Part shown: positions 2,833-39,768 of the stretch, one piece after another
Layout of the letters: each line of letters begins with the position of its first letter
Numbering within the stretch: position 1 is the stretch's first letter
Origin: Myxococcota bacterium
GTDB taxonomy: Bacteria > Myxococcota_A > UBA796 > CAJQPC01
Direction: 5' to 3'
Assembly: GCA_036012755.1 (NCBI GenBank)
Contig: DASCPX010000019.1
Location: 1 to 64,000 of the forward strand
Length of the DNA: 64,000 nt
Translations under genes and position numbers: made by a program
The notes under the pieces: generated by a model
Database searches by the model: none
The model's input: only the letters and a program-made list of their open reading frames with translations
Told to the model about the DNA's origin: nothing

Positions 2833-3516
2833 TCAGTCCCGCGGCGTGAAGCTCAGCGTGACCGTGACGTCCCCGACGTACAAGGGGCTGTTGTCGCAGT
2901 CGTCGACGTCGACGTTGACGGCCTCTGTGGTGGCCCAGGTGTAGCGTCCGCCGTCATTGGACAGGTCCACTCCCTCCTCCCACTGGCCGGAGGTCTCGTT
3001 CTTTCCGAAGAGCACCCACTTGTTGTCGTTGACGAAGGCGAAGCCGAAGCGCCCAGACGCAGGCGGCGCCGTGCCGTCGCCGAAGATCACCGTGCAGGTG
3101 TCCTGGCTGTAGCTGAAGGGGCCCTCGTAGGTGGCGTCGCACTGGGTGCAGATGTCGCCGTCGGTGACCTGCTCCAGGGGCGAGGTGAAGTCCGTGACGC
3201 AGTCGTCGATGGTCTCGTCGAAGTCCCCGGCCCAGGTCTCGCAGGTCACCTTGCGGCCCTTGAAGTCGAAGAGCGAGCGGTGGTCGATGACCGATGGGAA
3301 GTTGCAGGCCGCGAAGGCGTCGCAGTCGCTGTCGTCGCAGTCGGTCTTGCCGTCCTCGTCGTCGTCGAGGCCGTCGCCGCAGTCCTGCTCGGTGTCGGGG
3401 CCGCCCGGATCGCTGTCGTCGACCCCGCCGCTGTCGTCGCCCTCTCCGTTCTTGCGTGGACGGTCGATGTCGTCGCCGGTACCACTGGTACAGGCCAACA
3501 GGGCGATGAGCAGCAC
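2833..3516 (-). CDS. Lipoprotein with Cys/Asp-rich motif
   Basis: MLLIALLAC start with GGAGG RBS; CGDGLDDDEDGKTDCDDSDC motif. Confidence 0.8.
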   Translation of the reverse strand: MLLIALLACTSGTGDDIDRPRKNGEGDDSGGVDDSDPGGPDTEQDCGDGLDDDEDGKTDCDDSDCDAFAACNFPSVIDHRSLFDFKGRKVTCETWAGDFDETIDDCVTDFTSPLEQVTDGDICTQCDATYEGPFSYSQDTCTVIFGDGTAPPASGRFGFAFVNDNKWVLFGKNETSGQWEEGVDLSNDGGRYTWATTEAVNVDVDDCDNSPLYVGDVTVTLSFTPRD

Positions 3517-3524
3517 GGTGCCTC

Positions 3525-3959
3525 CTACTGGGCCATGGACCAGGCCCGCTCGAGCTCGCTGAGGAACAGATCCCCACCATTGAGCGGCGCGACCTCGATC
3601 CGCAAGCGATCTCCGTGGACGGAGATGATGTCGATGATGTCGCCGATGGCCCCGCCGTCGCTTGCTTCGACGCTCTGGATGTCCGCCAGATCGATGCAGC
3701 TGTTGCGGCTGGCCTTGTGGTAGCAGACCCGCTGGTCCGTGACGTAGGCGGCCTCTGTGCCGTCGAGCTGGATGGTGGCGTCGTAGTAGACCACCACGGA
3801 CTCGCCCGCCTCGAGCATGCCGTTGTTGTCGAGGTACTCGATGGCGTAGGCGTCCATCTGGTTGCCGAGCTGGGTGCCACCGGTCTTGCTCGGGTCAGAG
3901 CCAGCGGCCAGCACGAGGAAGGAACAAAGGGCGGCGCTGCTGAGGAGGTGCTTGTTCAC
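3525..3959 (-). CDS. Exported hypothetical protein (possible PH-like fold)
   Basis: GTG start overlaps the upstream stop (GTGA); hydrophobic N-terminus MNKHLLSSAALCSFLVLAAG. Confidence 0.7.
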   Translation of the reverse strand: MNKHLLSSAALCSFLVLAAGSDPSKTGGTQLGNQMDAYAIEYLDNNGMLEAGESVVVYYDATIQLDGTEAAYVTDQRVCYHKASRNSCIDLADIQSVEASDGGAIGDIIDIISVHGDRLRIEVAPLNGGDLFLSELERAWSMAQ

Positions 3960-4396
3960 TGCGTCTCTCTCGAGGGGGGTTCTCTGCGAAGGCTGCGACC
4001 AAAGGCCAGGAGGCCAGCGGCGGCACAGAGTAGCAAGTCGAGCACGTCGAAGGTCCCCGGGAGCAGTCCGATGGCCTGGAGCCCCTCTCCCCCGCAGCCG
4101 ATCAGGACACCAATCCCCAGCCAAGGGGCCGAGCCCAAGGAGACGCGCCCTCGCCACAGGCGCCCCATGAACGCTGTCAGCGCGTAGGTCCACAGCGCAT
4201 CAGGGAGGCTGTAGAGCACGATCTCGGGAATGACCAGACCCTCGACTGCCTCCCGCGCGCTCCCGAGCGGACCGCCGAGGCCAAGGGCCCGGACCCAGTC
4301 GAAGACACGGAGCGCCGATGACCGCCAGAGGAGGTAGACGGCGCTCCCGACCGCGAGTGGTGCAGCTACGTCCGAGGCGAAGAAGCTCGGCTTCAC
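3956..4396 (-). CDS. Hypothetical membrane protein
   Basis: Several hydrophobic segments; YSLPDALW and PGTFD.LDL motifs; abuts the acyl-CoA dehydrogenase gene. Confidence 0.75.
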   Translation of the reverse strand: MKPSFFASDVAAPLAVGSAVYLLWRSSALRVFDWVRALGLGGPLGSAREAVEGLVIPEIVLYSLPDALWTYALTAFMGRLWRGRVSLGSAPWLGIGVLIGCGGEGLQAIGLLPGTFDVLDLLLCAAAGLLAFGRSLRREPPSRETQ

Positions 4397-5974
4397 CTAC
4401 AGCGACAGCGGCGCGCTCAGCCGGTGCTCGACGAGATGGGCGGTGCTCCTGGCTCCGGAGTCGCCGAGCTCCGCGAGGAGGATGGCCTCTGCGACGAAGC
4501 CGGTGGTGAGAGCGAGTCTGCGGGCGTGGGCTTCCAGCCGACCCCGATCGCCCATGAGCCCCTTTGCCTTCTCGACCAGGCGCCCGAGGGTGGTGCGGAT
4601 CTCCGCGTGGACCGGCGTGTTCGACAGCGCGGAAGCCCGCCTTCCGAGTTCGGCCAACAGCGCTGACCACGCCCCCTCCTTGGTCTCCGCACGGAGAAGG
4701 TCCAGGGACAGCACGTTGGTGGTGCCCTCCCAGATCGACAGGACCTGGGAGTCGCGCACCAGCCGCGCCAGGGTCGTGCCCTCCATGTAGCCGGCGCCCC
4801 CGAAGCACTCGATGGCCTCTGACCCGACAGCGGCCGCCTGCTTGCCCAGGGTGAGCTTCGCCAGCGGGATCAGGGCACGCAAGGGGGTGTCCTCCGCCCC
4901 GTCCTCGACCGGCGCCATGCGCGCGGCCACCTCCATGGACAGCGCCAGGGCCCCGGCGTAGTCGGCCTCGATGAGATCCAGCGTCCAGGCGTGCAGCGGG
5001 TGCTCCCGCAGCAGCTTGCCGAAGGCCATGCGGCGGCCGGCGTAGTCCCTGGCCAGGTAGAGCGCCTTGGCCATGCAAGAGGCCGAGCTGACGGCGTTGT
5101 GGAAGCGGGTGACGTTCAGCATCGTCGCGATCGTCGGCACGCCGCGGCCGAGGTCACCGACGAGGGTGGCCTCCACACCGGAGAGCGTGAGCTCCGCGGT
5201 GGGGAGAGCCCGGGTGCCGAGCTTGTCCTTGAGCCGGTTCACTTCGATGTCCTGCATCGCGCCGTATTCGTCGCGGACCACTTCGACGCAGAAGCAGGAG
5301 AGTCCCCGGGAGCCGGGCTGGTCGCCGACCCGGGCCAGGGTGAGCGCCATCTCGCTGGTGACGGCCGAGGTGAAGGACTTGGTCCCGGTGAGCCGATAGC
5401 GCAGCCCGTCGATGTGATCGGCCACCGTGCCGGTGTTGGCCAGATCGGAGCCGCCCGCCGTCTCCGTCATCCACTGGCCAGAGGTGATGAAGGTGGAAGG
5501 GTCCGTCGACAACAGCTGCGGCAGGAGCCGCTCGGTGGCTCCTGGGACCTGCTGCTCGATCAGGACCCGGGCCGCCGCGTCGGTCATCGCCAGCGGGCAG
5601 CTGTAGATGGCGCTCGACGCAGAGAAGAGGTGGAGCAGGGTGGCCTGGACGACCCGCCGGTGGCCGTCGCCCTCGTAGCCGCTGGAGACGAGCCCGTGCT
5701 CGGCCGAGAAGGCCTTCAGCCGCTTCCACGCCGGGGAGACGCGGATCTCGTCGACCCTCCTGCCCCAGGCGTTGAAGGCGATGTGCTCGGGCAGCTGGGC
5801 TTCGGCCTGCTCGCTGAGCTCGTGGAGCTCTGTGGCGGTGGCTCGACCCAGGGCTGCGAAGCGCTCCTCGTTGGCGGCGAGCACCTCTGGAGGGAGGCGG
5901 CGTCGGAGCTCGGCGTGGAGCACCGGGTCGGCGGCGTATTGGTCGACTGGCTGAGGCGGATCCTGGAGGAACAT
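4397..5974 (-). CDS. Acyl-CoA dehydrogenase (AidB-like)
   Basis: SCPLAMTD, GQWMTE..GGSD, RLKDKLGTRALPTAE and IWEGTTNV motifs. Confidence 0.93.
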   Translation of the reverse strand: MFLQDPPQPVDQYAADPVLHAELRRRLPPEVLAANEERFAALGRATATELHELSEQAEAQLPEHIAFNAWGRRVDEIRVSPAWKRLKAFSAEHGLVSSGYEGDGHRRVVQATLLHLFSASSAIYSCPLAMTDAAARVLIEQQVPGATERLLPQLLSTDPSTFITSGQWMTETAGGSDLANTGTVADHIDGLRYRLTGTKSFTSAVTSEMALTLARVGDQPGSRGLSCFCVEVVRDEYGAMQDIEVNRLKDKLGTRALPTAELTLSGVEATLVGDLGRGVPTIATMLNVTRFHNAVSSASCMAKALYLARDYAGRRMAFGKLLREHPLHAWTLDLIEADYAGALALSMEVAARMAPVEDGAEDTPLRALIPLAKLTLGKQAAAVGSEAIECFGGAGYMEGTTLARLVRDSQVLSIWEGTTNVLSLDLLRAETKEGAWSALLAELGRRASALSNTPVHAEIRTTLGRLVEKAKGLMGDRGRLEAHARRLALTTGFVAEAILLAELGDSGARSTAHLVEHRLSAPLSL

Positions 5975-8720: not shown

Positions 8721-9365
8721 TCAGCGACCGTAGATGTGGACCCCCACCCCCACCCTCCACTTCAGCGTGTGGGGGTCCTCGAGCAGCTGAGCTTCCACCG
8801 GAGACTGGACAGCCGCCTGCTGGAAGAGAGCGAGCTCCTCCTCGCTGACGAAGACCGGCTGCCAGGTGCCGGCCCCCTCGACGAAGAAGCTGTATTCCCC
8901 GAAACCCTGGACCGTGACACCGGCCGAGCTCGTCAGCGCGGGCACGAAGGTGATCGTGTCGGTCCAGCGTCCCTCCGCCCCGCGCCCGGCCGTGAAGTTC
9001 GAGTACATCGCCGCTCCCGGGGCCAGGCCCGCGTAGAGCCCGAAGTGCTTCCAGTCCTGGCGTGCTCGGGCGAAGGGCGCGACCTGGTAGGCCGCCGACT
9101 GACCCTTCGAGATGCCGCGATCGGCATACACGATCGCGTAGTCAGGGAAGTCGATGAAGCCCTGGCCACCTACCTCGAGGTGCTCTCCGAGCAGCACGCC
9201 ACCGCCGCCACGCAGGCTGAAGTGACGGCCCGGTAGGAAGGCGAACGCAGTGGTCTCGCCGTCGTAGGCGAGGGCTGGGGTCGCGGCCCCGAAGCCAGCG
9301 CCGAAGCCGAACTCGAAGCGACCTTCAGAGGCCTCGACGGCCGTGATGAGAAGGAGTGACAACAT
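8721..9365 (-). CDS. Outer-membrane beta-barrel-like protein
   Basis: Short signal peptide; alternating Gly/aromatic strands; C-terminal WRVGVGVHIY. Confidence 0.65.
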   Translation of the reverse strand: MLSLLLITAVEASEGRFEFGFGAGFGAATPALAYDGETTAFAFLPGRHFSLRGGGGVLLGEHLEVGGQGFIDFPDYAIVYADRGISKGQSAAYQVAPFARARQDWKHFGLYAGLAPGAAMYSNFTAGRGAEGRWTDTITFVPALTSSAGVTVQGFGEYSFFVEGAGTWQPVFVSEEELALFQQAAVQSPVEAQLLEDPHTLKWRVGVGVHIYGR

Positions 9366-12429: not shown

Positions 12430-12634
12430 TAGTTCCCGCAATCCGAAGTCCCGAACCTCGTCCACCGTCTCGTTGCGGGAACTACGGCACGCGAAGCGGG
12501 CCGCCGGGGGCGGCGCCGAAAGCGCGGGGGGCGGGGCCCCCCCAGAGGAGGAAACGCGTGCCCCCAGCGCCGCGAAGCGGCGGGCGCCCAGCGCCATCGG
12601 GAGTCGCGTTGCGACTTCCGATCGGGGGTACTAG
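12430..12634 (-). mobile_element. Dispersed MITE/REP-like element, copy A (~205 bp)
   Basis: 21-bp imperfect TIR (TAGTACCCCCGATCGGAAGTC vs TAGTTCCCGCAATCCGAAGTC, 17/21). Aligns with 25279-25482 and 26505-26632. Confidence 0.75.
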
Positions 12635-14133
12635 TCGAACGCCTTCTCTGCCTCGACGACGCTCCAGGCCTGGGGCTCGAAGCGATAGGTGGCGTAGCTC
12701 GTGTCCTCTGCCGCCTGCTCCGAGTTCGGGGCCGAGGTCTTGTAGGTCATCGGCGTGTCGTAGGTCTTCAGCAGCGTCGTCGCGAACGTCGAGCCGTCCC
12801 CGCTGACCACCACGACCTGGAACTGCTCCGGGTGGATGTGGGCCTTGATCGCGGCGTTGACCTGCTCGACCGTGAGCTCGCGGAGCCTCTCGCCAAGGTC
12901 GTCGAGGATGTTGGGGACACCAAGGGCAGCAGCCTCCACCGCGTAGCCGAGCCGGCGTCCGGGATCCCGGGCCCAGAGCTTCTTGCGCTTCATCAGGTGG
13001 GTGCGCGTGGCCTCGAACTCATCCTGCTCGAGGCCCTCTTCGACGAGGTTCTCCGTCATCTTGAGGGCCATCTTGAGGGCGAAGGGCGCGTCATCCGGGT
13101 CCGTCGGACGGACCCAGACCGAGAACTGCGGCTGGGCGCGCAGGGTCCCCAGGAGCTGCTCCGGTTCCCTGATGCTCACCTGACGGTAGTGCTCGATGTA
13201 GGCGTAGTCGCCGAAGTTCAGCCCGCGATCGCTCCGCATCTCGCGGTAGAGCCGCCCGTAGCTCTCCCGGTGAGCGCCAAAGGCCGTCATCGCTACCAGC
13301 AGGGCGGGGTAGTCCGGGTGGGAGCGGGTGACCTCGAGCGGATGACCGAAGTGCGCGCCCGTGGCGTCGGTCCCCCTCTCGATGACGATGAGCTGACGCG
13401 CGCTGAAGGCCTTGCGATCAGCTGGCGTCGGGGTCTCGAGCTCGCCTGAGGGCAGGACGCTCAGCGCGTCCACGAGGTCCGCCACCAGCGGGTCGTCGAC
13501 CGCGCCGGCGAGCCCGAAGGTCAGGCCGGCCTGGTCATAGGCGCCGTGGTGGAAGGTCTTCACGTCCTCCAGCGAGATGTTGTCGAGCCCCGAGGGGAGC
13601 CCCTGGACCGGGTGCGAGTATGGATGTCCCTCGTTCAGCACGTGATCGAACACGGCATCGCCAAGCTCCTCGTCGGACTCGAGGATGCCGATCGTGATCT
13701 GCGCCCTGGCCTCGTCGAGGGCCCGGTAGAAGGCGGACTCGTCCATGCCGGGAGCGGTGATGGTCTGGGTGAACAGGGGCAGGAAGGCCGGCATGTCCTC
13801 GCGCAGGGCCTTGCCCCGAAAGGTCACGAGGTCCTTGTCGATGACGACCTCGATCTCGGCGCCGAGCGCGAAGAGCTGCGTCTGGACCTCGTCCGGCATC
13901 AAGGCCCCGGCGCCGCCAGTCCGCATGACCTCGGTCGTGACCCAGGCGAGTCCTTGCTTGTCCGCCGGGTCATGGGCGCTGCCCGCCCGGAAGGTGGCGT
14001 TGAGGTAGACGATCTGGGAGCCCTGGACGGGCAGCACGATGGGCTGCAGCGCCGGGGTCTCGACGGCCTCGAGCGCCGCGGGCTCGGGTTCGACCTTGGG
14101 GCAGCCCACTCCGATGAGGATGGCGAGGAGCAT
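12631..14133 (-). CDS. M16 (insulinase-family) peptidase, non-catalytic lipoprotein subunit
   Basis: MLLAILIGVGC start, TGATG-coupled to the upstream gene; GSAHDP.DK.GLA, GHPY.HP..G and RLY.EMR..RGL motifs. Confidence 0.88.
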   Translation of the reverse strand: MLLAILIGVGCPKVEPEPAALEAVETPALQPIVLPVQGSQIVYLNATFRAGSAHDPADKQGLAWVTTEVMRTGGAGALMPDEVQTQLFALGAEIEVVIDKDLVTFRGKALREDMPAFLPLFTQTITAPGMDESAFYRALDEARAQITIGILESDEELGDAVFDHVLNEGHPYSHPVQGLPSGLDNISLEDVKTFHHGAYDQAGLTFGLAGAVDDPLVADLVDALSVLPSGELETPTPADRKAFSARQLIVIERGTDATGAHFGHPLEVTRSHPDYPALLVAMTAFGAHRESYGRLYREMRSDRGLNFGDYAYIEHYRQVSIREPEQLLGTLRAQPQFSVWVRPTDPDDAPFALKMALKMTENLVEEGLEQDEFEATRTHLMKRKKLWARDPGRRLGYAVEAAALGVPNILDDLGERLRELTVEQVNAAIKAHIHPEQFQVVVVSGDGSTFATTLLKTYDTPMTYKTSAPNSEQAAEDTSYATYRFEPQAWSVVEAEKAFD

Positions 14134-15434
14134 CACTCCTCCTCTGCGACGGCGCTGAGCGTCGCGACGGTGAGGTGTTCGGCGACGAAGTACTCCCCGA
14201 CGACGCGACTCACGTCCTCTGGAGTCACGTTGGCGAAGTTGCGGTAGAAGGCCTCGACCGCGGAGGCGTCGCGGCCCCCGTAGGTGAAGGTGCCGATGGT
14301 GTTGCCGACCGCCTCTGGCGTGTCCTGGGACAGGCGGAAGCGCGCCAGCGCCGAGTCCCGCAAGAGCTCCAGGGTCGCCGGGTCGACACCCTCTGCGAGG
14401 TCCACGACCGCAGCGTGGATGGCCTCTTCGACCAGCGCGAGGTCGTCCGGGTGCTTCACGTCGGCCGTGAGCTTGAACTGGTGCATGTCGGTGAACTCGT
14501 CGACCTCGGAGCCGACGGAATAGACCAGCGCCCGCTCGACGACGAGGTCCTGGTGCAGCGCGCCGACCTCGGACGACAGCAGCTCCTCGACCACCGCCAG
14601 GACCGCGGCGTCTGGATCCCTGGGGTCGAAGCCGGGGATGCGCCAGCCCATGCGGATCTTCGGGTTCACCGGACCCTTGTCCCACTCCACGTGGACCCGT
14701 CGCGTGCTGGTCTGCTCGGGCTCCTGGACCGTGTCCGGGAAGCTGACGCCTGGCTCCCAGACGCCGAGGGTCAGGTTCAGCTGGGTGAGCACCGCCTGCG
14801 GGTCGAAGTCTCCGACCACCACGATGCGCGCCCGCTCCGGCCGGTACCAGGTCTCGTACCAGGCGCTGATCTCGTCGTAGCGGTCGTCGAAGGAGTCGAT
14901 GTCCTCGACCGTGCCCATCGGCGCGTGCCCATAGGGGTGAGTCGTGTAGGCGAGTGAGTCGAAGGCCTCTAAGAGAGCCCGGTCGCTGTTGGCGCGGTTG
15001 CGGTTGTTCGCGCCCCTGACGGCCCCCTCGGTCTGCTCGAGATCCGCGTCGTCGTAGGCCATGTACATGAGGCGGTTGGCTTCGATCATGATGATCGAGG
15101 GCAGGTGCTCGGCCGGGACGACCAGGCTGTAGACGGTCTGATCCTCCCAGGCCAACGCCGTGTCCGTCGACCCGGTGAGCAGGACCTGGGCTTCCCGCTC
15201 GTCCCGGTCCAGGCTGCGGCTTCCGGCGCTGGCCAGGTACATGTGGAGGTGGCTCAGCCCGCGACTGTCCGCGGTCTCGTTGCGGGTCCCGACGTCCATC
15301 CAGACCTGCCACGACACGACACCAGGGGTGTCCATGGGCGCGAGGTAGACCGTCAGTCCGTTGTCGAACTGTTCGGTCTGGACGTCGACCGGCAGCACCC
15401 CAGCCGCGGCCATCGTGGACAATGCGAGGAACAT
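14133..15434 (-). CDS. M16 peptidase-family protein with degenerate zinc motif
   Basis: NGLTVY, VGTRNE, HPYGH..MG..EDI and YRPE....VVVGDFD motifs; the HXXEH position reads HLHMY. Confidence 0.88.
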   Translation of the reverse strand: MFLALSTMAAAGVLPVDVQTEQFDNGLTVYLAPMDTPGVVSWQVWMDVGTRNETADSRGLSHLHMYLASAGSRSLDRDEREAQVLLTGSTDTALAWEDQTVYSLVVPAEHLPSIIMIEANRLMYMAYDDADLEQTEGAVRGANNRNRANSDRALLEAFDSLAYTTHPYGHAPMGTVEDIDSFDDRYDEISAWYETWYRPERARIVVVGDFDPQAVLTQLNLTLGVWEPGVSFPDTVQEPEQTSTRRVHVEWDKGPVNPKIRMGWRIPGFDPRDPDAAVLAVVEELLSSEVGALHQDLVVERALVYSVGSEVDEFTDMHQFKLTADVKHPDDLALVEEAIHAAVVDLAEGVDPATLELLRDSALARFRLSQDTPEAVGNTIGTFTYGGRDASAVEAFYRNFANVTPEDVSRVVGEYFVAEHLTVATLSAVAEEE

Positions 15435-19554: not shown

Positions 19555-19983
19555 TCAGTGGGCGCACCCCTCCGGCAAGGGGTCGGTGGTCTCCAGACCC
19601 GCCGCGAAGCCGCTCGGCGTCGGCGTGACCGTGAAGCCCTCCCCAAAGCTGCCGAAGAGCGCCTGGCCGCCGTAGCCCCCCGGCGCCATGTGGGCGCGGA
19701 CCCAGAGCTGCTGGTCCGCGCTCCCAGGCACGGGACCCCCACTCCGGGTGAAGGGCTGCTCCTCGACGTGGCTGTGGAGCAGCACGCGCCGGTAGAGCAG
19801 CTCCCCGTCTTCGCCCACCACCTCCCACCAGTCGGCGTAGCGCTCGCAGCCCGAATCGGGACTGCGCACCGTGACTGACAGCTCGTAGGCGCCCGGCTCT
19901 CCGCTGGCCTGGACCTCGAGCACGTCGGCGAGGGGCTCCTCGGGGGCGCTCGGAGACGAGCAGGCCGTGATCAGCAGCAACAT
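19555..19983 (-). CDS. Lipoprotein with putative metal-binding residues
   Basis: MLLLITAC after AGGAGG; SPD.GC..YADWWEV and R.LLHSH..EQPFTRS motifs. Confidence 0.8.
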   Translation of the reverse strand: MLLLITACSSPSAPEEPLADVLEVQASGEPGAYELSVTVRSPDSGCERYADWWEVVGEDGELLYRRVLLHSHVEEQPFTRSGGPVPGSADQQLWVRAHMAPGGYGGQALFGSFGEGFTVTPTPSGFAAGLETTDPLPEGCAH

Positions 19984-20035: not shown

Positions 20036-20440
20036 ATGTTCCTCCTGCTCACCGCTTGCTTCGTTCCCCCGCCGAGCTCCACCGAGAGCACCCCTCCCGA
20101 CGACACCGGCACCTGCGCCACCTGCGAGCTCACCGTCTCAGAGGCCCGCTACGACTGCGACGGGGGCGACAGCGGCGAGGAGCGCACGCTGAGCGTCGAG
20201 GTCGACGGCGGCCAGGTGACGGTGACGGACATGGCGTTCTCGGTGGGCTGCTGCCCCGACTTCGGCGCCACCGCCACGTTCACTGTCGAGACGAGCACCG
20301 TCGAGATCGTCTACACCCTGGAGAACGACATCTGCGACTGCATCTGCGACCTGGACCTCTTCACGACGGTCGAGGACGTGCCCTCCGGTGACTGGACCCT
20401 GCTCGTACACGGCGAGGAGCTGGCCTTCAGCGTGCCCTGA
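20036..20440 (+). CDS. Cys-rich lipoprotein
   Basis: GAGGAG RBS, MFLLLTAC; GCC and CDCIC motifs. Confidence 0.75.
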   Translation: MFLLLTACFVPPPSSTESTPPDDTGTCATCELTVSEARYDCDGGDSGEERTLSVEVDGGQVTVTDMAFSVGCCPDFGATATFTVETSTVEIVYTLENDICDCICDLDLFTTVEDVPSGDWTLLVHGEELAFSVP

Positions 20441-21149: not shown

Positions 21150-21893
21150 ATGCTGCTTGTCGTCGGAGTCGCCCTCGCCCTGACCCCCGAAGAGGTCCTC
21201 GCAGAGGTCGAGGCCCAGGACGAGTTCCGCAAGCACCGCACCGCGCCAGCGCCCAAGATCCCCGAGTCCGCCAGGAAGAAAGCCGCGAAAGGCGAGACGG
21301 TGGCAGGGGTGGACCTGCCGGCTGGCTTCGAGACCACCCAGGGCTGGGGGGTCGCCATCTGGGACGCCCCGGTCGAGGCCGTCTGGAAGGCGATCAACAA
21401 CGAGGACGAAGCCAGCGACTACCTCGTCCCCACCTACTCCGGCACCGTGGACGGCACGGCCCACCACTCGGATCGGGCGACCTTCCAGTACCTCGACGCG
21501 CCGATGCTGACGGACCGCTGGTGGATCACGCGCTGGAGTTTCAACGAGAAGCTCTACACGGAGTCCGGGGGCCAGGTCTGGGAGGTCAGCTTCGTCGAGG
21601 ACCTCGACACCGATCTGCTCGACGGGACCGAGTTCGAGGAGCTGCTCGAGGACTCGGTGCCCATCGCCTGGGGCAAGGGCGGCTACCTCGTCATCCCGTT
21701 GTCGGACGGCCGGACCTGGGTCGAGTACTTCACCTGGAGCGACCCCGGAGGAAACGTCCCCGCCGGGCTGTTCTCCAAGTTCGCCGATCGCGAGGTCCTG
21801 GCCACCTTCGAGGGCGTCGCCGCCCGCGCCGAGTACCACGAGACCTCGGGCGCCACGGGCTACGTCCGGCCAGACGGCAGCTCGCTGGACTGA
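21150..21893 (+). CDS. Secreted START/SRPBCC-like protein
   Basis: APVEAVWKAI, DRWW and T.VEY...SDPGGNVP motifs; short signal peptide. Confidence 0.7.
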   Translation: MLLVVGVALALTPEEVLAEVEAQDEFRKHRTAPAPKIPESARKKAAKGETVAGVDLPAGFETTQGWGVAIWDAPVEAVWKAINNEDEASDYLVPTYSGTVDGTAHHSDRATFQYLDAPMLTDRWWITRWSFNEKLYTESGGQVWEVSFVEDLDTDLLDGTEFEELLEDSVPIAWGKGGYLVIPLSDGRTWVEYFTWSDPGGNVPAGLFSKFADREVLATFEGVAARAEYHETSGATGYVRPDGSSLD

Positions 21894-21912: not shown

Positions 21913-22401
21913 CTAGGCCTCTGGGAGGAAGCGCACCGCCGTGGCCTGGATCTGGTAGATCGTGCCGGCCTGCTTCTCGGGCATGGCCTCCGGGTGCTCC
22001 GACTCCTCTTCCAGGTGCTTCACGAAGCTCTCTTCGGGCTCCGTGGCCTCGACGATGCCCTCGACCTGGGCGGTTCGGCCCGTGCCGTCCTTCGCCACGG
22101 AGAAGCTGTGGTCCTTCATCAGGACGCGCACCGTCTTGTCCTCGTGAGCGACGACAATCCAGCAGCCCTTCTTCTGGCAGACATCGGCCACGCGGCCTTC
22201 GAGGCGCACGGTCTGGCCCTCGAAGCCGCTCGGATCCGCCAGGAAGAGCTCGGCCTTGACGACCTCGTCGACGGTGAAGTCCGCCCCGAAGTGGGTGTCC
22301 GACTGCGCGGCCTCCACGACCTCGGGCGCCGTGACGGGGTCGGGGACGGTGGTGACCTCTGGGGTCTCCGTGGCACAGGAAAACAGCAGGGACAACAACA
22401 T
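21913..22401 (-). CDS. DUF4920-like OB-fold lipoprotein
   Basis: G.V.DVCQKKGCW motif; MLLSLLFSC start. Confidence 0.8.
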   Translation of the reverse strand: MLLSLLFSCATETPEVTTVPDPVTAPEVVEAAQSDTHFGADFTVDEVVKAELFLADPSGFEGQTVRLEGRVADVCQKKGCWIVVAHEDKTVRVLMKDHSFSVAKDGTGRTAQVEGIVEATEPEESFVKHLEEESEHPEAMPEKQAGTIYQIQATAVRFLPEA

Positions 22402-22449: not shown

Positions 22450-22851
22450 ATGTTCCCTTTGCTCCTGGCCTGCTGGGGCGAGCCCCCCGTCGCGACCACC
22501 GACGAAGCGCCGACGGTGGAGATGGACCTCACGAAGCCGGAGCCCCTCGCCACCGGCCCGGGGGTGGTCCCGGTCCCGGTCGCCGACAAGGAGGACGCGG
22601 TCAAGCGGGCCTGCTTGCGCCTGGAGGAGTGCGGCTGCACCGATGAGCAGCCCTTCGAGAAGTGTGCGGAGAGCGGCATGCTCACGACGCTGCCGGATAC
22701 GGTCTACCGCTGCATCGCGTCGAAGCCCTGCGAGGTCCTCTGCCAGCCGAATCCCCAGGGCACCCACGACAAGGGCCTCACCGCCTGCGTCGACCCCTAC
22801 CTCGAAGAGAGCATCGGCCGCGGTGAGGGCCTGAACAAGCGCGTAGAGTGA
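22450..22851 (+). CDS. Cys-rich lipoprotein
   Basis: MFPLLLAC start; eight further Cys. Confidence 0.7.
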   Translation: MFPLLLACWGEPPVATTDEAPTVEMDLTKPEPLATGPGVVPVPVADKEDAVKRACLRLEECGCTDEQPFEKCAESGMLTTLPDTVYRCIASKPCEVLCQPNPQGTHDKGLTACVDPYLEESIGRGEGLNKRVE

Positions 22852-23639
22852 GCCCCGTGCTGCTGCTCGCCGCCCTCGCCTGTCGCAAGTCTCCGGAGGC
22901 CCCAGCCGAGATCTCGGAGCTCACGCGCTACCTCGCCCGTGAGGTCCAGGACGAGGACATCGAGGTCCTCGCCGCCGGCGTGGAGCAGCTCGACGCCCAC
23001 CTCGCCACCATCGACATGGAGGGCGACATCGTCGACGAGCGCAGCTGGATCGTGGATGTGCTCACCGAAGACGACGTCGCGCTCTACGAGCACCCCGACC
23101 GCTCGTTGGATGTGCTTGTCACCCTCGGCGTCGTCGGCGAGGAGCTCCACGCCATCGAGGACCACGCCCCCTACATGATGTGGGTCGACCAGACCAACAT
23201 CAACGCCGGGGTCGTCTACTACACGCGCACCTTCCCCGACACAGAGGACGGGAGCTGCTTCGCCGAGGGGAGCTGCGAGTCGATCCTGACCTTCAACCAC
23301 AGCATTCGCGAGAACGCGCTCTACGAGGTCTACCTCGAGGTCTACAAGTACTGGCGCTGGGTCGAGCTCGACGATGGCCGGAGGGCGGTCGTCGCCTTCG
23401 CATGGTTCGAAGAGAGCTGGCCGACGACCAACGGAAAGGAAGCCCACCTCTGGCAGAACTTCGAGCTCGACGTGTGGATGGACCACCCGACCGACGAGAA
23501 GATCTGGCGCTACTACGTGAGCTGGACCGAGAACGACGTGGCCGAGTCCGCCGACATCGTGCAGGGCATGATCCGGGGAACGACCGAGTCGCGCTACGAG
23601 ACCGAAGAGGCCGCCGCTGGCGGAGAGATCACCGAGTAG
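22848..23639 (+). CDS. Acidic lipoprotein
   Basis: GTGA overlap with the upstream gene; LLLAALAC lipobox. Confidence 0.78.
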   Translation: MSPVLLLAALACRKSPEAPAEISELTRYLAREVQDEDIEVLAAGVEQLDAHLATIDMEGDIVDERSWIVDVLTEDDVALYEHPDRSLDVLVTLGVVGEELHAIEDHAPYMMWVDQTNINAGVVYYTRTFPDTEDGSCFAEGSCESILTFNHSIRENALYEVYLEVYKYWRWVELDDGRRAVVAFAWFEESWPTTNGKEAHLWQNFELDVWMDHPTDEKIWRYYVSWTENDVAESADIVQGMIRGTTESRYETEEAAAGGEITE

Positions 23640-28687: not shown

Positions 28688-30943
28688 TCAGAACTCCTGG
28701 CCGAGCCGCAGGTAGACCTGGGGGGGCCCTATCTGGGACAGCGGCACGCCCACCGTGGCGCCGACCGTCCAGGGGATGACGCCGAGTCCGTCCAGCGTGA
28801 AGATCACGCCACCGGTGGCGCCGTAGCGGAGCCAGGTGCCCGAGAGCGTGGGGTCGATGAGCTCACCGGCCTCGTCGAGCTCGGAGGCCTGGCCGATCCA
28901 GCCGCCCTCCACGCCGCCGGTGAGCTGCACCTCGTCCAGCCAGTAGAGCCAGAGAAGCGGAACCGAGGCGTTCTTCACCGGCCTGCCGCGGAGCTCGAGG
29001 CGGGCGAGTCCGCGCTGGTGGCCGAGCACCGCCCCGGGTGGGATCGAACGCAGGGCGCTGCTGCCGCCCAGGCTCAAGAGGCGGTGCTCCACGAAGCCGC
29101 TGGCCAGGCCGCCGCGCACCTGCCCTGCGAGCGCCACTCGCGGGTGAGGCGCCCAGACCTTCATCGCGCGAGCCTCGCCCGAGAGCCAGGTCTTGCCCGA
29201 CTGCGGCACGATCCCGCTCGAGCCTGACAGGCCGAAGCTGTGGCCCCGGAGCGGGAACTGGTAGTCGACCCGGGTGTTGTGGGCCCAGGCCGCGCCCAGC
29301 CCGAAGGCGTAGCTGCCCTGGGCGGTCGAGGCGAAGGACGGAGAGAACCACGACCCGGCCGACCAGATCGACACCCTCGAGGTCCTCGACCGCCGGTCCT
29401 TCAGCGGTCCGAAAAAGCGGTGGTAGCCCACAGCCGCCCCGAAGAGGTCCTGCTCGTCCGTCGACGCCGTGAGCGCGATGACGTTGCGGGTGTCGTACTG
29501 CCTCCGGAGGTGGGCCGTGGCCACCCCGACGATCTGCCGCTGGGAGAGGTTGATGGTCTCCGGGTAGACCGTGCCGATCGTGGTCCAGCGGGCCGGCCAC
29601 CGGTCGTGGGCCAGGTCGGTCTGGAGCACGTGGCCCTCTGGGTCGAGCACGACACGGCGCGGCAGGCTGCTGCGCTCCAGCCTGAACGACCCTCCGGGCT
29701 CGATCTCCGCGACGTGTCGCTGGCGGTCGACCTCCACGACGAGGGGCTCGACGACCGAGCCAGCGGGGGCTTCGCGCTCCACCTCGACGAGCTCTCGACG
29801 AACGCGCAGCGAGTAGTCCTGCTCGGGATAGGGCCGGGCCCAGCCGTCCAGCCAACCGGCCTCGATCCCGACGCCCTCGATGGCCTCGATCAGCGAGGCG
29901 CCATCGAGCAGATCGTCGACCACCTCGGCAGCGGTGCCGGCCCCCCAGGCGTCGTCCAGCTTGGTGGCGAGCACCCTGCCGGTGACCCGAGGCTCGAAGA
30001 TCTCGACGAGATCGTCCCGCAGCGAGTCCCCCGGGAAGGTCTCGTCGAAGACCTCTGCGTGGAAGGGCATGCGGCCCGAATAGAGCATGTAGTCGACCAG
30101 CGGGATGAAGCTGCCGAGCCGCATCAGCCGGCCGAGCTCGACGTCCTCGATCCGCTCCTGGTACTCGGCTCCGAGCACCGCCGCGGCCAGCTCCGCCTCC
30201 CAGACCCCGGAGACCTCGATACCCGCCGCGAGCAGGCCCCGACCGACCGGTCCCCTGTGGAACCGGTACAGCAGCTTCGGCGTGCGAAACGCCTGGCTCG
30301 AGAGGTAGAGCACGCCCTCGCCCGGGCGCACGAGCCGCCGGTGCATCGGGGCTTCGACGACGACGAGGGACTCCGGACGCTCGCCCTCCGGAAAGGCCCC
30401 TTCCCAGGCCAGCGACAGCTCCTCGAGGCGTCGCGGCCGCCGAGGTCCCCGGTCGATGAGCCAGAGCCCATCGCCGAGCTCCTCGAGGCGCCCATCCACC
30501 ACCGCGATCGAGAGGCGGGCGGCCTCGCCGTGGTAGCTGAGGGTCCCCTCCCCCGCGACGCCGTTGATCACGCCGACGGTGCCCTCTGGGAGGCTCAGCT
30601 CAACCGTCCAGCTCTGGACGGAGAGCTCCTCGGCCTGGGGGTACCAGCCGCCGTTTGCCCAGAGTCCCCCGCGCAACGCCCCGAGGGCCCCGTAGCGCCG
30701 AGGCAGGCTGGTGGTGAAGGTGCCCTCGGAGAACTCCACCGACCCCGTCGACGGCGCCCCGGGGTAGGTGCGCTGGAGCGTGTAGTCGTCTTCGGGCTCG
30801 GGCAGCCTGGCCAGCGGATCGACCAGCTCACCAGCGATCTCGTAGGACCCCCGGATGGTGCGCAGGTCGTCCTCGACCGTCGCGACGATGCGGGCTGCGG
30901 ACGCTGCGCCACCCAGACTCAGCGCCAAGAGCCAGGGGCTCAG
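28688..30943 (-). CDS. Outer-membrane protein: M1-peptidase-like N-terminus plus Omp85/TamA-like barrel
   Basis: GGWYP motif; LGG.SALR motif and terminal RLGQEF. Start uncertain (CTG 30943 or TTG 30928). Confidence 0.7.
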   Translation of the reverse strand: MSPWLLALSLGGAASAARIVATVEDDLRTIRGSYEIAGELVDPLARLPEPEDDYTLQRTYPGAPSTGSVEFSEGTFTTSLPRRYGALGALRGGLWANGGWYPQAEELSVQSWTVELSLPEGTVGVINGVAGEGTLSYHGEAARLSIAVVDGRLEELGDGLWLIDRGPRRPRRLEELSLAWEGAFPEGERPESLVVVEAPMHRRLVRPGEGVLYLSSQAFRTPKLLYRFHRGPVGRGLLAAGIEVSGVWEAELAAAVLGAEYQERIEDVELGRLMRLGSFIPLVDYMLYSGRMPFHAEVFDETFPGDSLRDDLVEIFEPRVTGRVLATKLDDAWGAGTAAEVVDDLLDGASLIEAIEGVGIEAGWLDGWARPYPEQDYSLRVRRELVEVEREAPAGSVVEPLVVEVDRQRHVAEIEPGGSFRLERSSLPRRVVLDPEGHVLQTDLAHDRWPARWTTIGTVYPETINLSQRQIVGVATAHLRRQYDTRNVIALTASTDEQDLFGAAVGYHRFFGPLKDRRSRTSRVSIWSAGSWFSPSFASTAQGSYAFGLGAAWAHNTRVDYQFPLRGHSFGLSGSSGIVPQSGKTWLSGEARAMKVWAPHPRVALAGQVRGGLASGFVEHRLLSLGGSSALRSIPPGAVLGHQRGLARLELRGRPVKNASVPLLWLYWLDEVQLTGGVEGGWIGQASELDEAGELIDPTLSGTWLRYGATGGVIFTLDGLGVIPWTVGATVGVPLSQIGPPQVYLRLGQEF

Positions 30944-31794
30944 AACGTGAAACCCATCCCAGCGTGGATCTCGGGCATCACTTGAGGCGTCCAGGTCGAC
31001 GCGAGCTTGAAGTGGAAGGCCCGGGACACGATGCGGATGCCCCCGTGGATGCGGGCGCGGCGCCACGCGTCATCGGTGGGGTCGTAGGCCTCTGTGTTCT
31101 TGAAGCCACTCACCGGCGTCACGCCCAGGCTCTGGGAGACCTCGCTGGCGAGCTTGGGCTCCGCGTGCAGGATGACCTGCCCGGCGCCGATGAAGGGGGA
31201 GAAGCTGGCGCTGTTGACTCCGAGCAGGGAGCCGAAGGGCAGGGAGTAGGACAAGGTGCCCGACCAGTCCATCGCGCCGAGCTCGAGCTGGTCGTTGCCG
31301 ACGTAGCCGGCGTAGCCGATCTGGAAGGCGATGTCGGGGGCTTGCTTGTAGCCCTCCAGCGGCGCGACGCGACCGTAGCCGCCGAAGACCGTCTGGCGCG
31401 AGAAGCCCACCCAGCCCAGGTTCACCCCCAGCTCGGTCGACAGGGGCAGGCCCTTGCGCACCATCAGCCAGGGAATCCACAGGGCGTTGCGTGCATCGCC
31501 GTCGACGTCCACCCGGTCCCAGGGCGACGGGACACCGAAGTCCGGGGCCTTGTTGCTGTGGAAGGCGATGGTCGTGGCGAGGCCAACCTCGAAGCCGTTG
31601 ATGCCAAGGGTCTCGGCGGGCGCAATGGGCTTGTTCGCGACCGCAACGCCGAGCTCCTGGACGACCGTGCGGTAGTCGTCGACGTTCTCGGCCGGATCGA
31701 GCACGGGCGAGTCGTTGTGGTAGGCGAGCTGGGTGAGGTCGACATCGTCGGGCCAGGCCGTGGCCGTGGCTCCTGCGATCAAGGCGAAGAACAT
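30940..31794 (-). CDS. Secreted/outer-membrane hypothetical protein
   Basis: PAETLG..GFE and RKGLP.S.E motifs; terminal GFTF. Confidence 0.78.
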   Translation of the reverse strand: MFFALIAGATATAWPDDVDLTQLAYHNDSPVLDPAENVDDYRTVVQELGVAVANKPIAPAETLGINGFEVGLATTIAFHSNKAPDFGVPSPWDRVDVDGDARNALWIPWLMVRKGLPLSTELGVNLGWVGFSRQTVFGGYGRVAPLEGYKQAPDIAFQIGYAGYVGNDQLELGAMDWSGTLSYSLPFGSLLGVNSASFSPFIGAGQVILHAEPKLASEVSQSLGVTPVSGFKNTEAYDPTDDAWRRARIHGGIRIVSRAFHFKLASTWTPQVMPEIHAGMGFTF

Positions 31795-36329: not shown

Positions 36330-36827
36330 TCAGGGTTCGAGGTCGATCGGCCGGTTGATGTTGCGCAACCAGCTGGTGGGCATGGCGACTCGCTCGGCAC
36401 CGTCAGCCAGCTTCTTCGCCGCATGGCCCCCCTCCGCGATCTCCCGGGCGCGGCCTGCCCACGACCCCGGATAGCGGGCGACGAGGGGATGGACGTGCCC
36501 GTCGAAGGCCACGCTGGCGGGTCCCAACGCGAGGAACGCCTCGGGCGGAATCCAGGGCAGATCGCAAGGGGCGAACACCGCCTCGCCGAGCTCGAGGGCG
36601 ACGGCGACGCCGAGGGCCGGGTGGCGGGGCTCGAGGGGCTCGACGAGCACGGGGAGACCGAGGTGATCGAGGCGTCGGTCTTTCGCCACGATGCCGACCT
36701 GGAGGCCCGCCGCCTGCATGGCGCGGGCGACGCGGAGGACCATCGGGATGCCCTCGACCTCGACCGTGGCCTTGTCACGACCGAAGCGAGACGACGCTCC
36801 TCCGGCCAGGACCCAGCCTCTCAACAC
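36330..36827 (-). CDS. mobA: Molybdenum cofactor guanylyltransferase
   Basis: VLAGG.SSRFG.DKA, PCDLP and NIN.P.DL motifs. Confidence 0.9.
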   Translation of the reverse strand: MLRGWVLAGGASSRFGRDKATVEVEGIPMVLRVARAMQAAGLQVGIVAKDRRLDHLGLPVLVEPLEPRHPALGVAVALELGEAVFAPCDLPWIPPEAFLALGPASVAFDGHVHPLVARYPGSWAGRAREIAEGGHAAKKLADGAERVAMPTSWLRNINRPIDLEP

Positions 36828-38065
36828 CCGCGATCCTCGCGCGGGGGGTGTGATGGCCAGCCGTAGTCGGGCCCGGCGCCATCGAGGAAGCGCCAGGACA
36901 GGACCTGCACGCGCACGGTGGCTCCGGCCGGTCTGGTGCCTTCGTCCGCCGGGATCAGCGTGAGGCCATCGGCCTCGGCCATCGAGGTCAGGACCCCGCT
37001 GGACTGAGTCCCGGTTCCGCTCGCGACGAAGCCCTCTGCGGAGCGGCAGAGCTTGACCCGCGCGAGCTCGGCGCGCCCTGGCCTCGCGCGGATGGCCGAG
37101 GCGAGGACGGCCTCGACGACCGGCAGGTGCGGTCGTGGGTCGCCGAGCGTCTTGCGTATGACGGGCCGCACGAACTGGAAGAAGTTCACCATGCAGCTGA
37201 CGGGGTTCCCGGGGAGGCCGAAGCAGGGCACGCCGCGGACCCTTCCATAGGCCAGGGGCTTGCCGGGCTTCATCGCGACCTTCCAGAAGTCCACCTCTCC
37301 GAGGATGTCCTTGACGTGGTCGAAGTCGCCGACGCTGACCCCGCCGGTGGTGAGCACGAGGTCCGCGCGCAGACAGCTCTCGAGGGCCTCCCGCAGACCC
37401 TCTGGGTCGTCCGGCGCGATGCCGCAGTGGATCGGGACCGCGCCGGCGGCGAGCACCTGCCCCATCAGCGTGATGGTGTTCGAGCTGTAGATCTGACCGG
37501 GTTGGAGCGGCCAGCCCGTCTCGACGACCTCGTCGCCGGTGGAGAGGATGGCGACTCTGGGCTTCTGGGCGACCAGCACCGATGGAAGGCCCAGCGAGCT
37601 GATGAGACCGACCGCCGCCGGGTCCAGCACGCGCCCCTTCGAGAGCACCACCTGGCCGCTGGTGACGTCGCCGCCGCGAGGCCGGATGTTCTGTCCCGCC
37701 GTGGCGGCGTGGTGAATCACGACCTGCTCGTGCCCGCCGTCGGTCTGCTCGATCATGACGACGGCGTCTGCGCCCGCCGGCACCGGAGCACCGGTCATGA
37801 TGCGGCTGCAGCAGCCTCGAACGACCTCTCTGTCCGGGACGCCTCCCGCCGGGATGGTCTCCAGCACCCTCAGGGAGCCAGGCAGATCCGCGGCGATGAC
37901 CGCGAAGCCATCCATCGCCGAGTTGTCCCAGGGCGGCACATCGAGACCAGAGACGATGTCCTCTGCGAGCACGCGCTCGAAGGCCGCCGACAACGGCACG
38001 CGCTCGGGAAGGACCGGTCGAACCGCCGCGAGGACCCTGCGGAGCGCGTCGTCGACAGAGAGCAT
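36821..38065 (-). CDS. moeA: Molybdopterin molybdotransferase
   Basis: SAMDGFA, IMTGAP, STGDE, GGVSVGDFD, KPGKP and GLPGNP motifs. Confidence 0.96.
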   Translation of the reverse strand: MLSVDDALRRVLAAVRPVLPERVPLSAAFERVLAEDIVSGLDVPPWDNSAMDGFAVIAADLPGSLRVLETIPAGGVPDREVVRGCCSRIMTGAPVPAGADAVVMIEQTDGGHEQVVIHHAATAGQNIRPRGGDVTSGQVVLSKGRVLDPAAVGLISSLGLPSVLVAQKPRVAILSTGDEVVETGWPLQPGQIYSSNTITLMGQVLAAGAVPIHCGIAPDDPEGLREALESCLRADLVLTTGGVSVGDFDHVKDILGEVDFWKVAMKPGKPLAYGRVRGVPCFGLPGNPVSCMVNFFQFVRPVIRKTLGDPRPHLPVVEAVLASAIRARPGRAELARVKLCRSAEGFVASGTGTQSSGVLTSMAEADGLTLIPADEGTRPAGATVRVQVLSWRFLDGAGPDYGWPSHPPREDRGC

Positions 38066-39768
38066 CAGTCCACCCGAATGCGGAGCTTCTGCCCGACATG
38101 GATCGTCGAGCCGGACAGGTCGTTCCAGTCCTTGAGCTCCCCGACCGAGCAGCCGTTGGCCTGGGCGATGCGGCCCAGCGAGTCGCCCGAGCGAACCTCG
38201 TAGACCTTCCAGTCGTCGCTGGGACCGTAGAGCCTGAGCGTCTGCCCCGCCTGGATCCTGGAGGCGTCGCTGATGCCGTTCCACTCCATGACCTGGGAGG
38301 GTGTCACCCCGAAGTCCTTCGCGATGCCGCTGATCGTGTCGCCGCTCTTCACCGTGTAGACGAGCTGGGTCGTAGAGGCGGCGTCGCCCCCGCGGATCGT
38401 CAGCTTCTGGCCGACGCGGATGTGGTCGGCGTCGCCAAGGTCGTTCCACTCGACGATGTCGGCCACAGCGACCCCGTAGCGGGTCGCGATGGCGGCGATC
38501 GTGTCCCCGCTCCGGACCGTGTGGACCGTCGTGGTCCGCGGGGGCTCGGGCACGGGCGCGAGCTCGGCGGACACCCCCTGCATGGGAATGACCAGCTCCA
38601 TGCCGACGTAGATCCTGCTGGGGTCAGCGATGCGGTTGACCTTCGCGATCTCCGTCTGGCTGACCCCGTACTTCGAGGCGATGCCCGAGAGGGTCTCGCC
38701 GCGGTTGACCTCGTGTCGCCGGTAGCTGATGCGCTCGCTCGGCGGGATGGCCTCGAAGCACACGGCGAAGGTCTCGGCGCTGCCCTCCGGCAGGTGGACC
38801 AGCGTCGTCCCATCGGGCGGAGTCGCCCCGCGCAGCAGGCTCGGGTTCAACTCGACGATCTCGGTCTCGGTGGTCTCCGCGCACCCGGCGATGACGTCGA
38901 GGGTGACGGCCCCATGCACCTCGACCGACTGATAGCGCAGCTCGCCCTGGGGCTCGATGTCCGTGAAGCCGTAGCGCTCCGGGTGCTTGCCGATGATGGC
39001 GGCGGCGATGACCTTCGGGACGTAGTTCCGGGTCTCCTCGGCGAGGGTCTCCTGCTGCGCCAGGACCCAGAAGTCGCGGGTGCCGTGGCGCTTGATGGCG
39101 CCGTTGACGCGCCCTGGCCCGGCGTTGTAGCTGGCCCAGGCCAGGTACCAGTCGTCCTGGAGCTGGTAGAGGTCAGCCAGGTACGCGAGGGCTGCGCGCG
39201 TCGAGGCTTCCGGGTCGACCCGCTCGTCAGCCCAGTAGTCGACGCGCAGGCCGTAGGCCCGAGCGGTGGGCGCCATGAACTGCCACAGGCCCACGGCCGA
39301 GGCGAAGCTGCGAGCCGAGTTCGAGAACCCGGACTCGATCATCGACACGTAGACGAGATCCTGGGGGAGACCAGCGTCCTCCAGGGCCTTTTGCATCATC
39401 GGCCGGTAGCGGCTCTCCCGAGCCAGGTAGAGCGAGAACCACTTGCGTCCCCGGCCCGTGAAGTACCGCATCCACTTCTCGACCATCGGGTTGATGTCGA
39501 TCGGGATGTCGAAGTCAGCCTCGTCGACCTCGGCGAGGTGGAGTGGGTCCACCGCGAGCGCCGCGACGGGGTCCGTGTAGAGGCGCAGGTCAGGCTCCCG
39601 ACCGAGCACTCCGACCCCCAGGAAGCGCTGCTCGTCGAAGCGCTCGTCCGCCAGCTCGCGCGAAGCTGCGACCTCGTCAGCCGAGAGCGACACGCCCTTC
39701 TCGGCTTCGAGGGTCTCCCAGATCCCAGGTTGTTCGGCCCAGGACAGTGTGGCCAAGAGCGCCAGCAA
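38065..39768 (-). CDS. mltD: MltD-like lytic transglycosylase with LysM domains
   Basis: IESG, AVGLWQFM, ASYNAG and ETRNYVPK motifs; four clear C-terminal LysM repeats. Confidence 0.92.
   Translation of the reverse strand: MLALLATLSWAEQPGIWETLEAEKGVSLSADEVAASRELADERFDEQRFLGVGVLGREPDLRLYTDPVAALAVDPLHLAEVDEADFDIPIDINPMVEKWMRYFTGRGRKWFSLYLARESRYRPMMQKALEDAGLPQDLVYVSMIESGFSNSARSFASAVGLWQFMAPTARAYGLRVDYWADERVDPEASTRAALAYLADLYQLQDDWYLAWASYNAGPGRVNGAIKRHGTRDFWVLAQQETLAEETRNYVPKVIAAAIIGKHPERYGFTDIEPQGELRYQSVEVHGAVTLDVIAGCAETTETEIVELNPSLLRGATPPDGTTLVHLPEGSAETFAVCFEAIPPSERISYRRHEVNRGETLSGIASKYGVSQTEIAKVNRIADPSRIYVGMELVIPMQGVSAELAPVPEPPRTTTVHTVRSGDTIAAIATRYGVAVADIVEWNDLGDADHIRVGQKLTIRGGDAASTTQLVYTVKSGDTISGIAKDFGVTPSQVMEWNGISDASRIQAGQTLRLYGPSDDWKVYEVRSGDSLGRIAQANGCSVGELKDWNDLSGSTIHVGQKLRIRVD

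Follow-up and report, generated by a model that had tools for sequence, protein, structure and literature searches.

Ultra-short, uncharged leaders in a Myxococcota genome as a probable lineage-specific variant of the Sec signal peptide

Can a bacterial export signal consist of little more than a hydrophobic core and a cleavage site? The question is raised by a 64,000-nucleotide stretch of contig DASCPX010000019.1 (positions 1 to 64,000 of the forward strand, here called the window) from the Myxococcota bacterium assembly GCA_036012755.1 (G000; 6.73 Mb, 68% GC, 96% complete). The initial annotation of the window named twelve genes whose leaders are extremely short and carry no lysine or arginine, and proposed that they form a non-canonical export and lipidation code. 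All twelve leaders were found to be encoded at the positions given for them, and the pattern extends genome-wide. Such leaders are best explained (with a probability of about 0.85) as working Sec signal peptides reduced to a leucine-rich h-region and a cleavage box, without an n-region. Judged from sequence, they appear to be a real, lineage-specific, and proteome-scale variant of the Sec signal peptide.

Short leaders in the source genome and their start codons

The analysed set comprised the 5486 genes of the source assembly that encode at least 80 amino acids and have a closed 5' end. Before any rule was applied, cysteine made up 3.2-5.8% of residues at positions 7-10 of these proteins and about 1.4% further in. 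A lipobox rule flagged 1010 proteins, with the cysteine at position 5-6 in 15, at 7-13 in 773, and later in 222. Positions 7, 8, 9, 10, 11, 12, and 13 accounted for 119, 253, 177, 111, 63, 31, and 19 proteins, respectively. The distribution peaks at position 8, with 754 of the 1010 proteins at 7-12; counts then dip at 13-14 and rise again at 15-23, where the leaders of a second group are basic. With the cysteine at position 13 or earlier, the rule was matched by 788 of the 5486 starts vs. 48 of 22353 internal methionine positions. An initial count of leaders without lysine or arginine (764 of 773) was partly a product of this rule, which bars charges near the cysteine and imposes Ala, Gly, or Ser at -1, and it was redone with a neutral rule. 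With the N-terminal positions left free, lysine or arginine occurred in 9 of 530 leaders with Cys 8-12, compared with 16-45% in other proteins.

In the short cysteine class, Leu occupies position -3 in 62%, and the last seven leader residues are richer in Leu, Ile, Phe, Trp, and Met than those of canonical leaders (66 vs. 42%). Leaders with Cys 7 carry Ile, Leu, Phe, Trp, or Met as residue 2 in 114 of 119 cases and a residue small enough for removal of the initiator methionine in five, while the longer short leaders tolerate a small residue at this position. Leaders of the signal peptidase I (SPI) type with a length of 8-15 residues were found in 235 proteins, where about 15 were expected by chance, and their length peaks at 11. 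Ala takes the -1 position in 95% of this class and the -3 position in 77%, although both values are partly imposed by the rule. The SPI rule itself also demanded the lack of lysine and arginine; the TonB, OEP, OmpA, and LolA examples given below came independently of it. Both classes together amount to about 1000 of the 5486 genes, about a fifth, with leaders of 6-15 residues. Contamination was ruled out as their source because they are present on all 45 contigs of at least 50 kb.

The twelve leaders of the window, with their genes, are the following (ORF, open reading frame).

3490..3516, minus strand: lipoprotein-type leader, Cys 9, GTG start; ORF 2833-3516, GGAGG upstream, no upstream start codon
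9330..9365, minus strand: SPI-type leader, 12 residues; ORF 8721-9365, in-frame stop 8 codons upstream
14101..14133, minus strand: lipoprotein-type leader, Cys 11; M16 peptidase-family protein 12631-14133, GGAGG, stop/start overlap
15402..15434, minus strand: SPI-like leader, about 11 residues; M16 peptidase-family protein 14133-15434, no upstream start codon
19960..19983, minus strand: lipoprotein-type leader, Cys 8; ORF 19555-19983, in-frame stop 3 codons upstream, GGAGG
20036..20059, plus strand: lipoprotein-type leader, Cys 8; ORF 20036-20440, GGAG, two possible upstream in-frame starts
21150..21179, plus strand: SPI-like leader, about 10 residues; ORF 21150-21893, one upstream in-frame GTG
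22375..22401, minus strand: lipoprotein-type leader, Cys 9; DUF4920 protein 21913-22401
22450..22473, plus strand: lipoprotein-type leader, Cys 8; ORF 22450-22851, in-frame stop 3 codons upstream
22848..22883, plus strand: lipoprotein-type leader, Cys 12; ORF ending at 23639, in-frame stop 7 codons upstream
31756..31794, minus strand: SPI-type leader, at most 13 residues; ORF 30940-31794
39736..39768, minus strand: SPI-type leader, 11 residues, TTG start; MltD-like SLT and LysM protein 38065-39768, no upstream start codon

Three of the twelve, at 3516, 22848, and 39768, begin with GTG or TTG. The SPI rule caught three of the five SPI-like examples (9365, 31794, and 39768) and not those at 15434 and 21150. 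An upstream in-frame ATG, GTG, or TTG is absent for nine leaders and present for those at 14133, 20036, and 21150; the possible upstream starts of the 14133 gene fall within the gene before it. The initial annotation had held many of the starts unlikely to be mis-called. This holds for the nine genes without an alternative, and is favoured for 14133 by the GGAGG and the stop/start overlap and for 20036 by the GGAG, while 21150 appears to be the least secure start of the twelve. The gene at 22848 may start at the GTG at 22857 instead, which would give Cys 9 rather than Cys 12.

Across the genome, an in-frame stop lies at most 3 codons upstream in 140 and at most 10 codons upstream in 233 of the 788 genes with a cysteine at position 13 or earlier. 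The possibility that the true starts lie upstream, raised at the outset, is contradicted for the 140 genes pinned in this way. Mis-called starts were rejected as a general cause because 247 of 773 genes have no upstream in-frame ATG, GTG, TTG, CTG, or ATH, and the stop-pinned genes and the placement of promoters and Shine-Dalgarno (SD) motifs agree with this. A TANNNT box occurs 5-8 nt upstream of 158 of the 788 short-leader genes, with a peak at 6 nt, vs. 25 of 24288 internal ATG or GTG codons, and an SD-like motif precedes 44% of short-leader starts vs. 15% of internal codons. The start model of the gene caller was trained on upstream sequence, which makes both enrichments partly circular; the stop-pinned cases are free of this. 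The same box at 5-8 nt also precedes 415 of 4476 other genes of the assembly, and is twice as common for short-leader genes. From its position near the start, leaderless mRNAs are probably widespread in this genome.

Several further features of the window were observed. The two M16 peptidases stand in tandem (12631-15434, minus strand), one with a lipoprotein leader and the other with an SPI-like leader, and the zinc motif of the second seems degenerate by eye. ORF 2833-3516 gave a weak match, below the cut-off, to an acidic double-disulfide repeat. ORF 30940-31794 resembles DUF6588 outer-membrane-barrel-like clusters (an Atlas lead, with a TM-score of 0.74 to a DUF6588 model), and the Atlas neighbours of two window proteins were mostly from Myxococcota. 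By N-terminal sequences, what looks like a type II secretion operon spans 45039-58890 (minus strand), in which the pilin-type leaders retain basic residues.

Exported cargo, homologues, and distribution

The proteins behind the short leaders look exported, with their mature parts outside the cytoplasm, and the leaders are very probably export and lipidation signals. Families that have to pass the inner membrane were identified without regard to their N-termini. Of six full-length TonB-receptor genes, three carry uncharged leaders of 11 residues, two are canonical, and one is a fusion. Uncharged leaders of 10-11 residues precede two of five OEP matches (TolC family) and one of two LolA matches; in OmpA-domain proteins, such leaders measure 9-13 residues and occur in about 9 of 21. 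In the cysteine class, 772 of 788 mature parts lack a transmembrane helix and the mature composition equals that of canonical lipoproteins (Asp 11%, Arg 4%). With the lipobox cysteine left out, the cysteine count is even in 426 of 598 proteins (p 8e-26; control 154 of 289). An even count is also seen in 62 of 93 proteins with stop-pinned starts and in 70 of the 102 that have Cys 7. Such a bias is expected of disulfide-bonded proteins with one blocked cysteine. A P-loop was found in 1 of 773 short cysteine-class proteins vs. 214 of 4476 others. YajC (contig C27 of the source assembly, 86880-87236) has a short SPI-like leader in front of its transmembrane helix.

Homologues were aligned, as the initial annotation had suggested, and the lipobox-like cysteine was kept while the leader changed. 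This was seen in 20 of 21 pairs of short lipoproteins of the source genome and sampled relatives (17 by rule, 3 by eye), and the two relatives from other orders have leaders of 16-18 residues with Arg. The DUF4920 family behaves likewise: in the 18 aligned of 21 matches, the same place is taken by uncharged leaders with Cys 8-12, by longer Arg-bearing lipoprotein leaders, or by SPI leaders. Short and canonical leaders also swap among BamD-like and MltD-like orthologues, with several MltD starts unsettled. Within the source genome, 28 of the 788 proteins have full-length paralogues whose leaders were called as canonical; a few of these calls misplace the start, and some leaders called long are in fact short ones whose start was placed too early. 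From this interchange, the short form probably derives from the canonical one through loss of the n-region. E. coli BamD is a lipoprotein; the BamD-like (YfiO) proteins of the order (L010-L039) have mostly SPI-type leaders without a lipobox cysteine. One MltD match (L323, genome G020) contains a single in-frame TGA.

The range of the trait was traced with a DNA motif of Met, five mostly hydrophobic codons, Ala, and Cys, which sees only ATG starts with Cys 8. The source genome has 62 matches, 54 of them at called starts. At least 20 matches occur in 38 of 125 genomes of its order, with top counts of 122-127, compared with at most 5 in each of 188 genomes outside the order: at most 3 in 26 genomes from other orders of the class and at most 5 in the 162 taken from elsewhere in the phylum. 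A single match occurs in E. coli K-12. Within the order, such genomes are found in f1 (7 of 19), f7 (26 of 30), f6 (3 of 10), f4 (1 of 2), and f5 (1 of 16), with none in f3 (0 of 39) and f2 (0 of 9). Gene calls on small samples of 20-80 kb per genome agreed for the most part: among lipobox leaders, the cysteine lay at or before position 13 in 25 of 46 from f1, 5 of 12 from the remainder of the order, none of 15 from other orders, and 4 of 21 from the wider phylum. Genomes G003 and G030 showed no short lipoprotein leader in 80 kb, yet have 29 and 40 motif matches genome-wide. G006, with its 2 matches, has uncharged leaders of the Cys 9-12 type, and a low count does not equal absence. In a thin sample of poor genomes of the order, each of the three lipoprotein leaders was canonical. 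The rich genomes are not one clade on a quick SecY tree, drawn without a formal test. Among the sampled genomes, the trait is confined to one order and patchy within it. The comparison of signal length and charge with other Myxococcota agreed with the lineage-specific pattern that had been anticipated.

Export machinery and competing explanations

The source genome encodes SecY, SecA, SecE, SecD/F, YajC, YidC, Ffh, FtsY, and a signal recognition particle (SRP) RNA, as well as three S26 proteins (LepB among them), five Lgt, two LspA, Lnt, two LolA-family proteins, and two deformylases. R143 and R239, which we take to be important Lgt residues, are kept in all five copies and H103 in one. Neither LspA copy is truncated, nor is Lnt, and the conserved Asp motifs are present. 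An operon lspA-lspA-lgt-lgt lies on contig C59 at 99943-102600 (L001, L006). Each of 41 genomes of the class has two to seven Lgt copies, and LspA occurs in one or two copies in genomes rich and poor in short leaders alike, with one match in each of the rich genomes G151, G160, G182, and G030. Across rich and poor genomes, neither copy number tracked the trait.

No clear shift was seen in SecA at the inspected positions, for which the placing of the groove was provisional and one stretch was poorly aligned. In SecY, position 187 (E. coli I187), a pore-ring residue according to the available text of PMC2171872, is Ala or Ser in all 29 sequences from the order's clade, and 26 of 27 outgroups have Ile there; the remaining five ring residues are canonical. 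I187A/S is also found in genomes of the order with few short leaders. When 150 diverse SecY were aligned, Ala, Ser, or Thr occurred at 187 in 28 of 147 and Ser at 411 in 22. As a decisive adaptation, I187A/S was downgraded because poor genomes share it and because diverse SecY have such residues as well. Pore-ring changes frequently increased translocation in an E. coli library, with log2 effects of +0.47 for I187M and +1.66 for V411S, while F64Y (-0.37) counts as no effect (PMC13537251, in the accessible part); I187A/S is not among the matches listed from that part of the paper. F64Y is present order-wide. Position 411 is Ser, Asn, or Ala in 9 of 14 rich rows, including Ser in the source genome, and all 15 rows from poor or middling genomes have Gly; this difference is a lead only, and a permissive SecY channel in the order is possible. 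A divergence of the SRP RNA, hinted by 5 genomes, was not upheld in 40, and its conserved loop is intact.

The initial annotation had inferred an adapted SecA, SecY, Lgt, LspA, or LepB, and this part found no clear support: on inspection of the Sec, Lgt, and LspA sequences only SecY I187A/S stood out, and it is shared by poor genomes. The other part, that these are true N-termini which behave as export and lipidation signals in a lineage-specific manner, fits the data.

Some observations concern the machinery itself. One S26-family protein (contig C228, 11573-12124; L278; also L276 and L277) seems by eye to lack the catalytic Ser and Lys motifs and sits between two short-leader lipoprotein genes; similar proteins were found in G151 and G185 and none in G019 and G053. 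G179 has two SecY copies (L179, L206), one of which has Ile 187 and clusters outside the order; contamination of this assembly is 8%. The FtsY match L286 (G151) contains one in-frame TAG. In the source genome, tRNA-SeC is present, and tRNA-Asn, -Ile, and -Phe were not found, probably owing to an assembly gap.

As reduced Sec signals, the leaders would form two classes. Those of the form M-(hydrophobic)4-10-[AGS]-C would receive their lipid from Lgt, be cleaved by LspA, and then be acylated by Lnt, and those of the form M-(hydrophobic)-A-x-A would be cut by LepB. Given the large residue 2 of nearly all Cys 7 leaders, the initiator Met should stay on; probably formylated, it would count within the hydrophobic core, whose minimum would be about five large hydrophobic residues, Met included. 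The uncharged N-terminus would lie inside the SecY gate or the bilayer and not be held at the cytoplasmic face, so that a leader of 6-12 residues could still show its box on the periplasmic side. Targeting would proceed via SRP, or via SecA reading the leader together with the acidic mature region. SRP binding blocks deformylation in E. coli (PMC5454389, in the text available), and a tip that keeps its formyl group would carry no charge and could sit in the SecY gate. Provided that the leaders are export signals, ordinary loop insertion with a half-spanning helix is slightly favoured, head-first entry is the less likely course, and other routes are rather improbable. Loop insertion fits because 388 of 764 short leaders have the more negative side after the cysteine; the more positive side lies there in 128 of 764 short vs. 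7 of 126 canonical leaders.

A number of points weigh against the reduced-signal explanation. The genes were called with a purpose-written caller and not a standard one (5946 genes, 91% coding), and 526 of the 773 genes could in principle start upstream, their starts depending on scoring. Canonical leaders are kept by half of the TonB receptors as well as by numerous further exported proteins, the cysteine parity of the SPI class shows little bias (53% even), and no machinery change that tracks the trait was found in Lgt, LspA, SecY, SecA, or SRP RNA. The -2 position of the lipobox is mostly Leu (61%) rather than a small residue, and the short leaders fail the G+LPPv3 lipoprotein motif, as given in the accessible portion of PMC13068155, on both R/K and length. 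The first two points would also feed an artefact, in which the real starts are farther upstream and bring in a basic n-region, or the proteins stay in the cytoplasm; some upstream start codon exists in about two-thirds of cases. This is highly improbable in view of the stop-pinned cases, the promoter and SD positioning, the standard codon use at stops, and the same motif in 38 related genomes, and the start errors that were observed ran the opposite way, with short leaders called too long.

Among readings that accept export, the strongest rival, though unlikely, is a second Sec mode in the order. The whole signal would be a formylated tip of six residues, namely Met, four large hydrophobic ones, and Ala; uncharged, this tip would thread head-first or half-way through a SecY with a relaxed pore ring and relaxed proofreading, the chain would follow, and the tip would dock in the outer leaflet, to be lipidated and cut on the far side by Lgt, LspA, or LepB. 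This mode would carry about three-quarters of the lipoproteins, and short and canonical leaders would be two modes with no continuum. The two peaks with a trough at 13-14 suit it, with Cys 7-12 lacking and Cys 15-23 mostly having lysine or arginine, as do the exclusion of these residues beyond their being optional, the excess of positive far sides over canonical leaders, the Ala or Ser at SecY 187 throughout the order's clade, the library effects of I187M and V411S, and Ser 411 in the source genome. It is countered by the 388 leaders that retain the more negative far side, as loop insertion wants, by the five canonical ring residues, by the presence of such residues at 187 and 411 in diverse SecY and of I187A/S in poor genomes, and by the order-wide F64Y, which had no effect in E. 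coli. Service by a dedicated paralogue, one of the five Lgt, two LspA, or three S26 proteins, is improbable: the five Lgt all have both arginines and, of the five genomes checked, the three rich ones have extra S26 proteins and the two poor ones do not, but several Lgt copies are the rule throughout the class, four rich genomes have one LspA match each, and one extra S26 protein seems by eye to lack the catalytic motifs. Still less probable is export without removal of the leader, which would act as a short anchor or end in a cysteine lipidated but left uncut by LspA. The Leu at -2, where small Ala, Ser, or Thr is usual (PMC13068155, in its accessible portion), counts for such an outcome. A second point in its favour is that a leader this short would not fill the transmembrane groove of LspA. 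It is opposed by the Ala of the SPI class at -1 and -3, partly imposed as this is, by the full-length LspA copies and Lnt, and by the beta-barrels and LolA, which must leave the inner membrane.

Relation to known signal types

Like lipoprotein signals of the Sec/SPII type, the short leaders have a hydrophobic stretch, Leu at -3, Ala, Gly, or Ser at -1, Cys at +1, and a flexible acidic tether, and the enzymes are encoded; they differ in the lack of a basic n-region, in Cys at 7-13, and in Leu at -2. The PROSITE lipoprotein rule places the Cys at 15-35, and a rule of this kind is passed by only 146 of the 1010 lipobox proteins. One published lipoprotein set has a mean Cys position of 21.4, and the G+LPPv3 motif requires R/K and a Cys at 13 or later (PMC13068155, same portion). 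With Sec/SPI signals they share the A-x-A box, the polar acidic start of the mature protein, and the cargo families; they measure 8-15 residues in total vs. the usual 16-30 or so and have no n-region, for which an average of about 4 residues is expected (SignalP 6.0 preprint, in part).

The order-wide pore-ring substitution at I187 recalls the prlA suppressor translocons of E. coli. Unlike these, the situation here is natural and proteome-wide, the leader pattern appears positively selected, and I187A/S neither belongs to the classical prl alleles nor follows the distribution of the trait. Eukaryotic SRP-type signal peptides are Leu-rich with a weak n-region, and the short leaders resemble them in the Leu-rich core and the little or no positive charge, while they are shorter still, bacterial, and mostly end in a lipobox. 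Tat signals differ in that no short leader has Arg; 27 separate Tat-like proteins were found in the source genome. Engineered n-region mutants of E. coli lipoprotein are reported to be still exported, although slowly. In the literature searched, subscription papers and bioRxiv supplements excepted, no description of short uncharged leaders was found, and the available text of a secretome study that includes Myxococcota genomes (PMC11495043) has nothing on them.

A basic n-region and a membrane-spanning length are textbook features that are built into prediction rules, and about 1000 genes of this genome appear to do without them. Dozens of related genomes also use such leaders, down to six residues. 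As these leaders fall outside the prediction rules, rule-based lipoprotein counts for the order would be several-fold too low. Minimal leaders of this kind may serve secretion engineering, and together with close relatives as controls they would offer a natural library for the role of the n-region and for the minimum length accepted by SecY, Lgt, LspA, and LepB.

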